DNA of 50,127 bases from Nitrospirota bacterium (GCA_040756155.1 JBFLZU010000070.1:1-50127); one strand, 5' to 3'. Positions 1,312 to 46,825 are shown, counted from the stretch's first letter. Program-made: numbers and translations. The notes: generated by a model not told the origin, from the letters alone.

Positions 1312-4300
1312 ATGGCAGAGAGGCGATATATAGGTCTTGATGCAGGCTCTATCAGTGTAAAACTCATAGTCCAGGATGAAGGTCTCAGGATAATTCACGA
1401 ATCCTATGAAAGACATTATGGACAGCCTTTAAAGGTTGCCATGAATCTGCTTGAAAAGACGGAGCCAGCCAACTGTCTTGGTATTACAGGTTCTGTCGGA
1501 AAACTCCTTGCCTCAATCCTGTCTGTTGAATTTGTTAACGATATAATAGCACAATCAACTGCTGTCTCAAGATTTTATCCTGGAATAAAAACCATCATAG
1601 AGATGGGTGGTGAGTGCTCAAGGTTAATTATCTTAGAGAATGGTATACTTAAGGATTTCTCGATGAATTCGATATGTGCTGCAGGGACATGCTCATTTCT
1701 CGATCAACAGGCAGAACGACTTAACCTCACTATAGAAGAGTTTGCTGAACTTGCGATGAAATCGAAAAAGCCTCCTCGGATTGCTGGGAGATGTAGTGTA
1801 TTTGCGAAATCGGACATGATACACCTCCAGCAGATAGCAACCCCTGATTACGATATAATCGCGGGACTCTGCTTTGCTGTGGCAAGAAACTTTAAGAGTA
1901 CAATATGCAGTGGCAAAAAAATCCATACTCCCGTTATCTTTATTGGAGGTGCAGCTTCAAATAAGGGAGTGGTTCGAGCATTCAGAGAAGTTTTTGAATT
2001 AGGGGATAATCTTGTTATTCCTGAACATCATCTGACAATGGGTGCTATTGGTGCGGCGATGATGGCGGCGAAGAAGTTAGTGAATGGTGAGTTGCAAGCT
2101 AAAGAAGAATATATCAAAAAACTGGAGGAATATCTGAGATCCGCTGATGGTTACCAGGGTGAGGGGCTTACACCATTAAAAATTCAGGGTTCGGAGTTAA
2201 GAGTTGATAGTCTAAATACATGCCAGATTCAAACTTCTAACTCTCAACTCTCAACTCTCAACTCTCAACTCCCAAAGATTCCAGCATACCTTGGTATTGA
2301 TGTCGGATCAATAAGCACAAATCTTGCAGTGCTCGATGAAGACAAGAACCTTCTTGCAAAGCGCTACCTGATGACCGCTGGAAGACCGATAGAGGCTGTA
2401 AGAAAAGGGCTTGATGAGATAGGAGATGAGATAGGTGATTATGTGGTTATCAAAGGGGTTGGCACAACAGGTTCTGGGAGATACATGATAGCAGACTTTG
2501 TAGGTGCAGACATTGTAAAGAATGAGATAACCGCACAGGCTACTGCTGCAATAGAAATAGATGCTACAGTAGATACCATATTTGAGATTGGTGGACAGGA
2601 TTCAAAATATATAAGCATAGACAACGGTGTTATAGTTGATTTTGAAATGAACAAGGTATGTGCTGCAGGCACGGGTTCTTTTCTGGAAGAACAGGCAGAG
2701 AAACTCAGCATCAGCATTAAGGATGAGTTTTCTGATATGGCGCTTTCATCCTGTTCTCCATGCAGGCTTGGAGAAAGATGCACTGTATTTATGGAGACCG
2801 CACTTGTAAGCAACCTGCAAAGAGGGGCACCCAAGGATAATCTTGTAGCAGGACTCAGTTATTCTATAGTTTACAACTATCTTAACCGTGTTGTCGGAGA
2901 TAAGCGAATAGGGAATAATATCTTTTTCCAGGGTGGGGTAGCATTTAATAGAGGTGTAGTTGCCGCTTTCGAGAAGGTTCTCGGAAGAAGGATAACAGTG
3001 CCACCCGATCATGATGTAACAGGTGCTATAGGAATGGCACTTATAGCTATGAGATATATGAAAGGCAGTTATGAGTTAAGAGTTAAGAGTTATGAGTTAA
3101 AGGATAAAGAAAACTCAAGACTAAACTCTGAACTCCGAACTCTTAACTCCAAACTCCAAACTAAGTTCAAGGGATTTGGACTTTCTAAAAGGAACTACAC
3201 TATAAACCCATTCGAATGCAAGGGATGCTCAAACCTGTGTGAGATAAAACAGGTAAAGATAGAGGGGGAGGGGAGTTCTTTATTTTATGGAAGCAGGTGT
3301 GAGAAGTATGATGTTAAAAGAAAATCGAGAGCAGAAGAGATACCTGATTTATTTAAGAGAAGGGAAGAGTTATTAACCGCTGCTTACGAGCGATGTATTA
3401 ACAATACGCAACACTCAACAGTCTCTTTTCCTGATACTCGTCCAAAAATTGGTCTTCCATGGATGCTTTTCTTTCAGGAATATCTACCATTCTGGGGGAC
3501 ACTTCTACGGGAACTCGGTTTTAATGTGGTGCTTTCCGATAAGACGAACAGGTCTATAATAAACAGTGGTGTGGAGTCAGTGGTTGTAGAGACATGTTTC
3601 CCGATAAAGGTTGCACATGGTCATGTGCTCGATCTTATCCAGAAGGGTGTTGATACTATATTTGTTCCAAGTTTCATAAACCTTAACACAGAGAAAGATA
3701 TATACAGGAGAGGTGTTTCATGTCCATATGTGCAAACCATTCCATATGTTCTCAAAACAATTGTAAAAGATATAGATATTGTAAGACCCGTGGTGGATAT
3801 GAGCAGGGGACGAGGTTTTCTTGAAAATGAGATAAAGAATGTTTTTGAGAAATACAATCTATCTATACGTTCCATCCGCAGGGCAATAGATACTGCATTT
3901 AAAGCACAGGCAGAATTTTATAACGCTATCCAGAAGGAAGGCAGTAAGATATTGAAAGATGTTTCTGAAGGAAAATACCCGAGAGCCATAGTGATAGTTG
4001 GAAGGTCTTATAACTCAGTAGATTCAGGTGTAAATCTTGATATTCCGAGAAAACTCAGGGATATGGATGTGATCCCTATACCTATGGATTTCCTGCCATT
4101 AAACACAATAGATATCTCTGATGAATTTCCGAATATGTACTGGAGGTCAGGGCAGAGGATACTCGGAGCCGCTGAATTTATAAGAAAGAACAAATATCTC
4201 AACGCCATTTACATAACAAATTTCGGATGCGGTCCTGATGCATTTATTATCAGATATTTCAAGGAACGAATGGGTGGCAAGCACTTCCTTCAGATAGAGA

Positions 4301-44998: not shown

Positions 44999-46825
44999 TC
45001 AGGTAACAGGGAGAACGATACTTACCTTTGTTCCCTTTCCGATAGCACTCTCGATCTTCAGCGATCCGTTGTGTAGATTAACGAGGTGCTTCACTATTGC
45101 AAGTCCGAGTCCTGTTCCTCCGAGTTCTCTTGACCTTGATGGGTCTATACGGTAAAACCTCTCACCGAGTCGTGGTATATGGTGTGGTGATATGCCGATG
45201 CCAGTGTCTTCAACACTGACTTCTACGAAGTCAGTGAGTTCGGAGTGCTGAGTTATTAGTTCAGGAATTTCCTTACTCCTTGCTCCTAACTCCGAACTCT
45301 TAACCCTCCGGGCTCGCACGGAGACGTTTCCCCCTTCAGGTGTAAACTTTATCGCATTATCAAGTAGATTAAGTAGCATCTGGGATAAATAGTCCCTATC
45401 TGCAAGGACTTCTGGAAGGTCTACTGGTATATCGCTAACCATCATGATTCCCTTATCTTCTGCCATAGGTCTGAGTAAGAAAAATATTGGGTCAATAACT
45501 TCTCTCAGAGTAATGGGCTTAATATCAAGATGCACATTTCCTGATTCGATCTCTGATAGAGTGAGCAGATCGTTTATAAGCCTGCTTAGCCTCTCGACAT
45601 GGCTGGCGATGATTTTTAAAAATTTCAGAGCATCATCTCTATTCTCTATTGCTCCACCAAGCAGGGTTTCGGTAAATCCTTTTATGGCAGATACAGGGGT
45701 TTTAAGCTCGTGAGAGACATTGGCAACAAAGTCCCTTCTTATCTTTTCAAGTGTTTTTATCTTTGTTATGTCGTGAATAATCAATGCCGTGCCAGTGGAT
45801 TTATTATCTGACCCGTAGATTGGGACTGCATCAACTGTGACGATCTTCTCAACAGGACGTTGTAAGGTTACATCGCTGGTTACGAATTCATTAGTATTAT
45901 ATGCTTTTTCCAGGATTTCAAGCAGGTCGTTGTTCCTTAATACCTCTATAAAAAGCTTTCCTTCAATACTATCAGAAATATTAAATAGCCTGTAAAATGA
46001 TTCGTTTGCAAGGACAACGATCCCCTTCCTGTCGATGAGAAGGAGTCCATCAATCATCCCTTTCAGAACTGCTTCAAATCGCAGCCGCTCCCGGTTGATT
46101 GTAGATATCTTCTCCGTGAGGTCGGATGCCATAAGGTTTAGATTTTCTTTTAGCATGCCTAACTCGTCTTCTGTATCTTTAATGAGTCTGTGTTTAAGAT
46201 CTCCGCTCGCAATTTTTCTCGAAAATGAGACGATATCTCTTATCCCGGAGGTTATTGAGCGAGAAAAAAGGACGCTAACTGTAAAGAGTGCAAGAAGTCC
46301 TGCGGCAGATGCGAGGGCTACCCTTACCCCGATCGTGTTTATAGTATCTTTAACCACCGTTAGTGTCATGGATAGCCTCAGTATCCCCCCTTGACTTTCT
46401 TTACTGCTGCCAAATGTGACAGCGACATAGAGCATATCTTTTCTCACCGTACTGCTGTGTCGTATAGAACGACCTACACCGGTCTGGATAGCATCCTGAA
46501 TCTCAGGCCGCATTAGATGGTTTTCCATTCCTTCTGGCGATTCATCTGTATCAGCAATTACTCTGCCATCAGGGGCAATGACTGTGATTCTCGCATCAGT
46601 CATTTTTTTGAACAGGACTACCTGTGATTGATAATCGATAGGAATTTTCAGGGTTGAAAGGTGATGGGAGATAAGTCTGGCATGTTCCCTGAGTTTTTCT
46701 GCTGTTATGTCTATAAAGTATCTTTCGATAGCACCGGTTATATATATCTGTGTGAAGATCAAAACGGCTGATGTTATACCGATGTAGAAGATTATCAGTT
46801 TCCAGAGGAGACTTTTCTTTGTCAT
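44999..46825 (-). CDS. phoR: PhoR-like sensor histidine kinase
   Basis: TM-sensor-TM, HAMP, PAS, H-box SHELKTP, and HATPase_c (NLLDNAIKFTPEGG ... EDTGIGI ... GGTGLGLAIVK). Overlaps phoB by 4 nt. Confidence 0.8.
   Translation of the reverse strand: MTKKSLLWKLIIFYIGITSAVLIFTQIYITGAIERYFIDITAEKLREHARLISHHLSTLKIPIDYQSQVVLFKKMTDARITVIAPDGRVIADTDESPEGMENHLMRPEIQDAIQTGVGRSIRHSSTVRKDMLYVAVTFGSSKESQGGILRLSMTLTVVKDTINTIGVRVALASAAGLLALFTVSVLFSRSITSGIRDIVSFSRKIASGDLKHRLIKDTEDELGMLKENLNLMASDLTEKISTINRERLRFEAVLKGMIDGLLLIDRKGIVVLANESFYRLFNISDSIEGKLFIEVLRNNDLLEILEKAYNTNEFVTSDVTLQRPVEKIVTVDAVPIYGSDNKSTGTALIIHDITKIKTLEKIRRDFVANVSHELKTPVSAIKGFTETLLGGAIENRDDALKFLKIIASHVERLSRLINDLLTLSEIESGNVHLDIKPITLREVIDPIFFLLRPMAEDKGIMMVSDIPVDLPEVLADRDYLSQMLLNLLDNAIKFTPEGGNVSVRARRVKSSELGARSKEIPELITQHSELTDFVEVSVEDTGIGISPHHIPRLGERFYRIDPSRSRELGGTGLGLAIVKHLVNLHNGSLKIESAIGKGTKVSIVLPVT
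45217..45308. repeat. Family A hairpin element (CTGACTTCtacGAAGTCAG + GAGTTCG GAGTGCT GAGTTAT TAGTTCA ... TAACTCC GAACTCT TAACCCT) inside the phoR ATPase domain
   Basis: Read directly. The coding strand translates KSSELGARSKEIPELITQHSELTDF, between ...GGNVSVRARRV and VEVSVEDTGIGI. Confidence 0.8.

Follow-up and report, generated by a model that had tools for sequence, protein, structure and literature searches.

We analyzed a contig of a Nitrospirota bacterium (GCA_040756155.1, JBFLZU010000070.1; 50,127 nt, referred to in its entirety as the window) with a G+C content of 40% and a coding fraction of 91%, in which five dispersed loci within 50 kb carry arrays of a heptanucleotide unit, AACTCNN or, in the opposite orientation, GAGTTNN. 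Two of these arrays lie in the gene for a fusion protein of the acyl-CoA dehydratase activase type, and the others in the genes for CobU, PstB, and PhoR; all five sites are inside long open reading frames (ORFs) with Pfam-recognizable flanks. Heptanucleotide arrays are usually viewed as intergenic oddities of cyanobacteria. The family described here is the Thermodesulfovibrionia (Nitrospirota) version of the heptanucleotide class of short tandemly repeated repetitive (STRR) sequences and long simple-sequence repeats (LSSRs), and behaves like the Rickettsia palindromic elements (RPEs): heptamer arrays also form structured hairpin elements that colonize essential genes in Nitrospirota and that ribosomes are predicted to read through. 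Our preferred explanation, held with moderate confidence, is that the five sites are copies of one heptanucleotide-array family, seeded as non-autonomous hairpins and then reshaped in place. The partial copies are single arms of the element.

Array loci inside conserved genes

The pattern AACTCNNAACTCNNAACTC (three phased AACTC units) was searched for on both strands of the window with at most one mismatch and produced 15 matches, compared with 0.02 expected from 100 dinucleotide-preserving shuffles, none of which gave 15 (0/100). The matches resolve into exactly the five sites that had been listed in an earlier reading of the sequence alone (the original prediction). Chaining of phased units delineated eight arms across the five loci (Table 1), Tandem Repeats Finder reported period-7 arrays at the same places, a strict lag-7 threshold retained four arrays in the window versus 0.05 in shuffles, and an nhmmer search with a profile hidden Markov model (HMM) of full elements matched the five sites and no sixth. 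The dispersed arrays are thus borne out by pattern counts, repeat detection, and profile search alike, and the Pfam flanks confirm that each lies within an ORF of conserved domains, as had been claimed. Given that 91% of the window is coding, finding five of five sites in ORFs is unremarkable by itself (chance probability about 0.6).

Table 1. Heptamer elements, their component unit chains, and the host gene of elements 1 and 2 (positions counted from the first nucleotide of the window)
Feature	Position	Strand	RNA folding	Profile HMM E-value	Basis
Host gene of elements 1 and 2: acyl-CoA dehydratase activase-type fusion, 1444 aa (2x BcrAD_BadFG + DUF2229)	1291..5625	+			
Hairpin element 1	2185..2273	+	2180-2278: -24.3 kcal/mol, z -4.2	5e-10	
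Hairpin element 2, best-preserved copy	3064..3165	+	3060-3170: -34.8 kcal/mol, z -5.6	3e-31	
CobU composite partial copy	34996..35050	+	z -1.7, not significant	0.04	
PstB short single-arm copy, weakest member	41946..41972	-	z -1.5, not significant	0.05	
Hairpin element 5, within PhoR HATPase_c domain	45234..45308	-	45228-45312: -30 kcal/mol; z -3.5 and -4.3, two strands	3e-8	
AACTC unit chain, 6 units	2232-2273	+			phased-unit chaining
AACTC unit chain, 6 units	3124-3165	+			phased-unit chaining
AACTC unit chain, 3 units	35026-35046	+			phased-unit chaining
AACTC unit chain, 3 units (only 1 exact)	41946-41966	+			phased-unit chaining
AACTC unit chain, 3 units	45288-45308	+			phased-unit chaining
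GAGTT unit chain, 3 units	2185-2205	+			phased-unit chaining
GAGTT unit chain, 5 units	3064-3098	+			phased-unit chaining
GAGTT unit chain, 4 units	45234-45261	+			phased-unit chaining

Element 1 consists of a left arm GGGTTCG-GAGTTAA-GAGTT, a 26-nt loop, and a right arm AACTTCT + (AACTCTC)x4 + AACTCCC, and reads as GSELRVDSLNTCQIQTSNSQLSTLNSQLP in the linker that joins the two BcrAD_BadFG ATPase modules of the activase fusion. In element 2, a foot AAAGGCAGT, which includes a degenerate CAGTTAT unit, and four GAGTTAW units are followed by the loop AAAGGATAAAGAAAACTCAAGACTA and six NNAACTC units; this copy reads as GSYELRVKSYELKDKENSRLNSELRTLNSKLQTK and occupies the linker that leads from the second ATPase module to the DUF2229 part. 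The CobU copy is composed of two AAGTCAG units (34997-35011), a spacer, and AACTCAC-AACTCAT-AACTCAA, and no other in-frame start was found in the ORF from the TTG at 34986 to the P-loop. The PstB copy reads ATCTCCG-AACTCCG-AACTTCG-AACC on the + strand and GAGGTTCGAAGTTCGGAGTTCGGAGAT on the coding strand, which is translated as EVRSSEFG. Element 5, on its coding strand GGGTTAA-GAGTTCG-GAGTTAG...AACTAAT-AACTCAG-CACTCCG-AACTC, encodes RVKSSELGARSKEIPELITQHSELT at the tip of a β-hairpin between the N box and the G1 box of PhoR.

Alignment with orthologues and solved structures shows the copies to be additional DNA. Linker 2 of the activase fusion (TGAIG to FKGF) measures 53 aa in the window protein versus 24 aa in distant lineages, and the stretch that includes its conserved flanks 60 aa in the window and 30 to 75 aa among 120 Nitrospirota-type orthologues; the minimal linkers of the distant lineages establish the basal state. 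A metagenome scan for orthologous loci returned mostly distant lineages with minimal linkers and few element-bearing loci, with generic period-7 arrays at 28 per 1.1 Mb and no special enrichment. Between the N box and the G1 box, PhoR has 63 aa in the window and 40-42 aa in most orthologues (90 of 120); against the solved SrrB kinase (6paj), an unaligned block of 28 window residues faces 6, and alignments to solved histidine kinases break exactly at the array position. The N-termini of CobU and PstB exceed those of solved proteins by 21 and 18 residues, respectively, and the arrays lie inside these extensions. Orthologues that share the extra residues also carry the same nucleotide periodicity, so that the insertion finding is not refuted by them, and the linker and loop lengths support the earlier contention that the arrays were inserted at the DNA level rather than being an ancient protein feature. 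Placement in a linker, an N-terminal extension, or a surface loop, also predicted, agrees with the orthologue and PDB alignments: copies survive only where 8-35 added hydrophilic residues are tolerable, namely, in interdomain linkers, at N-termini, and at the β-hairpin tip. The arrays provide a natural map of permissive insertion sites (activase linkers, HATPase_c β-hairpin tip, PstB and CobU N-termini). In PhoR orthologues of other lineages, one of them labelled NC10, unrelated repeat-type insertions occupy the same β-hairpin loop, which marks this loop as a permissive site that has been hit repeatedly.

Element architecture and reading frame

A full copy is a quasi-palindrome of 85-105 nt that comprises a conserved foot, (YTG)AAAGACAGT, followed by 3-5 GAGTTNN units, an A-rich loop that starts with AAAGGATAAAG, and 3-6 NNAACTC units, often with a weaker mirror of the foot, AACTNTCTTTC. 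Three window sites are 75-100-nt hairpins of this kind, and the other two are single or composite arms. Non-orthologous copies from the window and three other genomes align across foot, arms, and loop, and the full copies reach nhmmer E-values of 1e-20 to 1e-31. A terminus, ACTGTCTTT (at most two mismatches), follows 16 of the 42 arrays of Nitrospirota-type loci, the window included, compared with 5% in controls; its exact form is present in one deltaproteobacterial metagenome-assembled genome (MAG) and three viral contigs. The polarity 5'-GAGTT arm ... AACTC arm-3' holds in 36/36 paired cases and is never reversed (each hairpin counted on both strands). The 3' ends hold no mechanistic information; 45 of 122 arrays finish with an incomplete unit, AACT.

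RNA folding, which the original prediction had named as a check, gave hairpins with both arms at three sites and no significant hairpin at the CobU and PstB sites (Table 1), in line with the three foldable copies that had been predicted. DNA folding was significant at two of the three hairpin sites, the exception being 2180-2278 (z -1.8). The three window copies with significant folds possess terminal inverted repeats as in miniature inverted-repeat transposable elements (MITEs), and the other two are single-armed.

Since 7 mod 3 is 1, every frame crosses the TAA phase of the array once per three units, and all three frames yield one seven-residue peptide, ELRVKSY or, from the other arm, NSKLQTP. 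It had been proposed that the frames in use avoid the one with stops; this is wrong in detail, given that all frames meet TAA and it is every third unit that is altered. In the ORF copies, the units with TNN in codon phase read TAT (eight times), TAC, TCG, and TTA (twice), and never TAA, whereas TAA occurs in 16 of the 21 units in which TNN falls into one of the other two phases. What keeps the ORF copies open is a sense codon, TAT or a different one, placed precisely at each third unit. Intergenic copies consist of GAGTTAA runs that lack this 21-nt superperiod and contain in-phase TAA (12536-12584 and 7960-8040 in L201, an orthologous locus introduced below). The avoidance of TAA in every third unit in ORFs clearly marks purifying selection on DNA that was not built for translation. 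The idea of selection after insertion is thereby retained on the strength of the codon-phase counts, and the explanation through choice of frame is dropped.

The 7-nt units do give 7-aa repeats, as had been noted, but these heptad-like peptides are a by-product of translation and do not attest coiled coils. That the repeats are in essence protein features, the DNA periodicity only reflecting selection for flexible or coiled-coil linkers with peptides such as ELRVKSY and NSKLQTP, is very improbable. The peptides are hydrophilic and located in linkers, and Borg tandem repeats create disordered regions (PMC9879509). However, synonymous positions are more conserved than the amino acid pattern demands, the same units occur in intergenic DNA with in-phase stops, the two arms are complementary as DNA and yet encode unrelated peptides, the occupants of a given site are unrelated to one another as peptides, and the segment is variable or absent in orthologues.

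Distribution, turnover, and origin of the arrays

The named orthologues of the host protein belong to Nitrospirota/Thermodesulfovibrionales. Loci L201, L202, and L203/L204, fetched as orthologues with linker peptides resembling those of the window, bear the same elements and further copies in other genes and in intergenic DNA. In L201, 7 elements, genic and intergenic, are present in 15.7 kb, and the activase gene of L201 and L202 contains four sites with family copies, three or four of which are hairpins. The GAGTT-type element resides at the same linker in three distant Thermodesulfovibrionales genomes besides the window. Linker 2 is exactly 159 nt long in the window, L201, L202, and L203, with similar loops, in proteins that are only 57-60% identical. 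Third-codon identity among the four is about 0.35-0.6 along the gene and 0.90 and 0.79 in two element bins; within linker 2, the two arms score 0.96 and 0.92 and the loop 0.73, compared with 0.40 for the 42 nt of host sequence directly upstream. The codons that are identical across carrier genomes in the element include those for Leu, Arg, and Ser (six-fold degenerate) and Val (four-fold). The conserved signal therefore lies at the DNA level, not the protein level. Simple vertical inheritance of an ancient insertion followed by neutral drift was rejected in view of the third positions (0.9 versus 0.4 in the flanks) and the patchy tree described below, and recent transfer of a whole segment among the four carriers was rejected because flank identity is at background level.

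Short repeats are prone to mis-assembly, and the window is a single metagenomic contig. Nevertheless, it is barely conceivable that the arrays are assembly artefacts: each is shorter than a typical read pair, the frame of 1444 codons stays open, and the same elements recur at the same sites in independent assemblies (NCBI, JGI, ENA, and Logan), with L203 (JGI) and L204 (ENA) agreeing in the coordinates (1-nt offset) and profile scores of every element.

In a neighbour-joining tree of the 120 orthologues, element carriers are scattered. The GAGTT-type element is missing from linker 2 in most of these proteins, and in the nearest relatives of the window (61-65% identity) the element is absent or variant, the nearest, L205, having an unrelated 10-aa linker in its place. 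Linker 2 contains GCGTTAT/ATCACGC units in L207 and L208 and AAGTTAC units in L206 and L331, and hybrid arrays are present as well (for example, the first unit in L202 is AATGCGT). Hairpin strength differs among these occupants: z reaches -7.7 for the GAGTT type and about -2.5 for the GCGT type, and the hairpin is lost in the AAGTTAC type (z +0.4 in L206 and -1.2 in L331). The sister genomes L201 and L202 have 13 and 5 left units, respectively, in linker 1. Within protein clusters of at least 90% identity, linker occupants can be wholly different repeat types, and one hairpin repeat can be nested in another. The gene is broken inside an element in at least one assembly, with P0243 ending in ...SEFRAQSSELKDKENSELKTRDPE and P0245 resuming on the same contig. 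The copies thus turn over quickly, on the timescale of strain divergence, through changes in unit number and variant, nesting, swaps of occupants, and occasional gene splits. New disordered protein segments arise from them rapidly, and a gene is occasionally broken; they mislead alignment, orthology assignment, and phylogeny of Nitrospirota proteins, and are usable as strain markers.

These data bear on the possibility that the hairpins are selected cis-elements, either RNA stem-loops or protein-binding arrays involved in pausing, mRNA stability or processing, or regulator binding, which we consider unlikely. The near-identity of the arm third positions (0.92-0.96) despite saturated synonymous sites, the sharp boundaries, the low z-scores of the GAGTT-type hairpins, and the location of some intergenic copies right before start codons or ending in a T-run would all fit such a role, and a regulatory function has been argued for heptamers of Beggiatoaceae (MacGregor 2015, PMC4679880). 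However, L205 and most of the 120 orthologues do without the GAGTT-type element at linker 2, AAGTTAC occupants have no hairpin potential, and strains that are at least 90% identical have unrelated repeat types at this site. Furthermore, an Rfam scan of the window hairpins matched no family. For eight orthologous linker-2 elements, RNAalifold predicted no consensus structure, and a hand-specified structure showed weak covariation, with 59% paired versus 57% after shuffling and 3 compensatory pairs versus 2.2 (in this alignment, the MAFFT register of the GCGT-family right arms is probably 1-2 columns off).

The reach of the unit was assessed by an exact scan for four AACTCNN units in one genome per GTDB species and in IMG/VR viral contigs. 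Among the matches listed, (AACTCNN)x4 is present in Nostocales and other cyanobacteria, Bacteroidota, Acidobacteriota, Planctomycetota, Deltaproteobacteria/Myxococcota, Chloroflexota, Nitrospira, and Thermodesulfovibrionales, as well as in viral contigs, so that the unit, of which the original prediction knew no description, is not peculiar to this genome. Many of the non-cyanobacterial matches listed have a GAGTTNN arm 20-60 nt upstream, that is, the same hairpin architecture, and foot and arrays occur together in three viral contigs. In viral L244/L330 (IMGVR_UViG_3300006045_000059), L234, and L329, AAAGACAGT is followed by (TGCGAGT)n in tandem modules with AAAGGCAAAGGACAAAG-type spacers, and viral L261 and L275 contain 4-5 AACTCNN arrays each.

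Under the preferred explanation, the elements would be seeded at new sites as non-autonomous hairpins, similar to MITEs or repetitive extragenic palindromic (REP) sequences, probably via a single-stranded hairpin intermediate. Arrays would then grow and shrink through replication slippage, might be homogenized within and between copies by gene conversion (concerted evolution), and could be shuffled between lineages by homologous recombination, with selection only filtering for an open frame and a tolerable peptide. The conservation of foot, loop, and polarity over unrelated loci, phyla, and viral contigs favours propagation from templates over independent growth, and the in-register change of unit variants, along with the many single arms, speaks for a large contribution of in-place array dynamics.

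The main competitor goes further, holding that the arrays originate where they are found, without any movement: a seed would expand by slippage that favours 7-nt units, fold-back or quasi-palindrome template switching would copy one arm into the other, the resulting hairpins would evolve by mutation and homogenization inside the array, and the family resemblance would reflect convergence and mutational bias. Although improbable on balance, this scenario carries appreciable weight. Heptanucleotides are the commonest class of long simple-sequence repeats in prokaryotes, for which slippage has been proposed (Mrazek 2007, as summarized in PMC4679880). Single arms form the majority outside Nitrospirota, where the paired inverted partner is absent from 113 of the 130 counted arrays. 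The linker-2 variants differ in unit sequence but agree in boundaries, register, and the number of left units (four), which fits change in place better than excision and reinsertion, and the hybrid arrays, the 13 versus 5 left units of the sister genomes, and the partial AACT unit at the end of 45/122 arrays point in the same direction. Against it stand the foot AAAGACAGT and the loop start AAAGGATAAAG, which are common to unrelated sites and genomes, including another phylum and viral contigs; the strict polarity, 36/36, which is unexpected from random template switches; the different lineages in which unrelated sequences hit the same permissive loops; and arms that are near-identical between genomes with saturated synonymous sites.

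The single arms outside Nitrospirota and the constant register of linker 2 weigh against seeding by hairpin copies, and further observations do so as well. The flanks of about 20 elements show no direct repeats that would represent a target-site duplication, and no clean empty site that would define boundaries was found; close relatives show replacement of the occupant of linker 2 rather than an empty site, and no insertion sequence (IS) was found. A mobilizing gene was found neither in the window nor in the flanks of the fetched loci. The sample, comprising the window and the fetched loci, is small and biased towards one hot-spot gene. Finally, the swap of occupants between L207 and L331 is not established as transposition. 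In this pair, whose genes are 95% identical, the differing block takes in the element plus about 40 nt of host sequence on its 5' side, and directly 3' of it the two are 100% identical; given the diverged flank and a second recombinant tract, homologous recombination is at least as likely, and thus constitutes one route of occupant exchange. The second tract, at alignment columns 3300-3600, is a repeat-free stretch of 300 nt with about 80% identity in a gene that is elsewhere 97-100% identical, and shows that these populations actively recombine with diverged alleles by homology.

Pfam scans of 40 window ORFs detected no transposase or REP-associated tyrosine transposase (RAYT), in agreement with the original statement that no mobilizer is visible in the window, and the same holds for the flanks of L201-L208 and L331. 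A 133-aa ORF at 38737-39138 (-), located between the genes for inositol-phosphate synthase and TyrRS, contains only HTH_23/HTH_29, resembling the N-terminal DNA-binding part of a transposase.

In a more speculative reading, the inverted heptamer-array hairpins of Nitrospirota, Deltaproteobacteria, Acidobacteriota, Bacteroidota, Planctomycetota, and viral contigs might be products of a single cross-phylum enzymatic system, the defining marks of which would be the polarity 5'-(GAGTTNN)n ... (NNAACTC)n-3', the AAAGACAGT foot, and the cross-phylum occurrence itself. One candidate is a nuclease of the HUH/Y1 type that works on single-stranded hairpins, another the templated extension of 3' ends at breaks. 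Arrays would be written, spread, and homogenized by this system even in essential genes, with protein linkers continually made and erased, and would represent a bacterial repeat of a new kind, mobile or self-renewing, and not a passive microsatellite. The fixed polarity and the conserved foot are signatures that can be matched against candidate enzymes making or spreading heptamer repeats.

Relationship to known repeats and neighbouring features

The two parallels offered by the original prediction, STRR sequences and RPEs, are both apt, the family being built like the former and behaving like the latter. The classical STRR1-3 units are CCCCAGT, TTGGTCA, and CAACAGT, and the present family, with its GAGTTNN/AACTCNN unit in Nitrospirota-type orthologues, is not one of these. 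With the STRR/LSSR class in general, it shares tandem 7-nt units arranged head to tail at many loci (the 15 matches versus 0.02 expected) and the co-occurrence of several unit families per genome, with at least five heptamer families in 22 kb of L205. Among the matches listed, AACTCCT-type arrays are abundant in Nostocales, beside other heptamer arrays. Unlike cyanobacterial STRR sequences, the present elements have a Nitrospirota host, most copies pair two inverted arrays and share a conserved foot and loop, and all five window copies lie in translated frames. Heptanucleotides are the dominant, most abundant LSSR class in prokaryotes (PMC4679880).

The TAACTGA repeats known from marine Beggiatoaceae, cyanobacteria, and Bacteroidetes are mostly intergenic and just upstream of starts, are direct only (one indirect case is reported), occupy peripheral positions in proteins when in ORFs, and show a scattered cross-phylum spread that suggests horizontal transfer (MacGregor 2015, PMC4679880). 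They resemble the present family in the AACT-core heptamer, the cross-phylum scatter, the peripheral ORF copies, and one orientation that bears stops in all frames; in contrast, the elements described here are typically genic hairpins from which stops are edited out in every third unit. In the intergenic DNA of L201 (12536-12593), a single-arm array, (GAGTTRA)x7, is followed directly by GAGATATG, the apparent ribosome-binding site and start of the next gene, in which respect it resembles the start-proximal repeats of Beggiatoaceae.

RPEs are old, largely static insertions of Rickettsia. In the account of Ogata 2000 given in PMC3184786, they are palindromic, about 100 nt long, and located in frame in housekeeping genes that remain intact with an added surface peptide. 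The present copies, too, are in frame, extra relative to orthologues, and at surface-exposed positions according to orthologue and PDB alignments, and the palindrome of about 100 nt and the surface peptide are further points of likeness. RPEs are not tandem heptamers, whereas the elements here vary in unit number and turn over between strains at least 90% identical; given the heptamer unit structure, sequence homology to RPE families is unlikely.

Bacterial MITEs (for example, Nezha) and REP sequences are, like the present elements, non-autonomous, hairpin-forming, and multicopy with a lineage-specific consensus, and the REPIN forms of REP sequences are inverted pairs. In-frame fusion of MITEs with genes has been described (PMC3184786). 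The family differs from MITEs in that its arms are microsatellite-like arrays rather than a fixed terminal inverted repeat; no target-site duplication, clean empty site, or cognate IS that would confirm a MITE was seen. REP/RAYT elements are extragenic imperfect palindromes of 20-40 nt with a conserved GTAG-type head at the 5' end, and the family falls outside this definition because its arms are heptamer arrays, it has no GTAG head, the foot being AAAGACAGT, and it is not extragenic, with all five window copies intragenic; no RAYT was seen. The small dispersed repeats (SDRs) of Nostoc, reportedly the subject of work by Elhai in 2008, are said to be 21-27 nt long, present in ORFs, and nested in other repeats including heptamer arrays. 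Nesting is observed here as well, a PPxFxxGG-type hairpin lying inside a heptamer hairpin in protein cluster 10, but SDRs are not heptamer arrays. The Borg tandem repeats also create new, disordered protein segments and are direct, with ORF units that are multiples of 3 nt (PMC9879509), in contrast to the inverted heptamers described here. Full-text literature searches yielded no earlier account of hairpins of inverted heptamer arrays from Nitrospirota or Thermodesulfovibrio, nor of the fixed polarity, the conserved foot, or the editing of stops in every third unit. The repeat class is already known; the hairpin architecture, foot, polarity, and stop editing are its new aspects. Also unexpected are the conservation of nucleotide sequence where the background is saturated, the fast turnover within essential genes, and the spread over phyla and viral contigs.

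Other repeats occupy the same or neighbouring sequences. At least three other repeat types are present in the same activase linkers of other Nitrospirota (P0002-P0120; L205, L207, and L208): ACGCATY/GCGTWAT heptamer hairpins with peptides RNALCVMSNAL...ITDHASR, an apparent octamer (GDTGTRGHGET...HRVTASPRHRVT), and a CCCCC..TTT/AAA..GGGGG hairpin (NPPLPPFTKGGQGG). At L078 2360-2420, in a Nitrospiraceae MAG, a CCCCCCTTTACTAAAGGGGGG hairpin adjoins an AACTCCA array. In cluster 10, P0324 and P0326 (strains at least 90% identical) are distinguished by an 11-aa insert between ...QKSEV and SQKSEE..., in the loop of the QKSEVR|SQKSEE hairpin, with a one-residue change at the junction. A second repeat family in the window, with an 8-nt period, lies at 128-161 and 24448-24495 (2 period-8 arrays versus 0 in shuffles): (GTGCTGCG)x4 is found just upstream of the likely start of an FBPase gene (Shine-Dalgarno sequence and ATG near 173), and GGTTCTGN/CAGTGCTG arrays are in frame in an HdrD-like CCG/Fer4 ORF, where the - strand reads ...NRSTAALQHCRTTEPQHRK...

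Directly 3' of the activase fusion gene, the ORF at 5812-6870 (+; 352 aa; LAGLIDADG_3, E 8e-12) looks like a free-standing homing-endonuclease gene and is absent from the equivalent position in L201, L205, L206, and L331. No tRNA genes were found in the window. At its end (50004-50127, +), the initial 124 nt of a 16S rRNA gene of bacterial type are present (Rfam RF00177, 53 bits), which is the probable reason for the assembly having stopped at this point.

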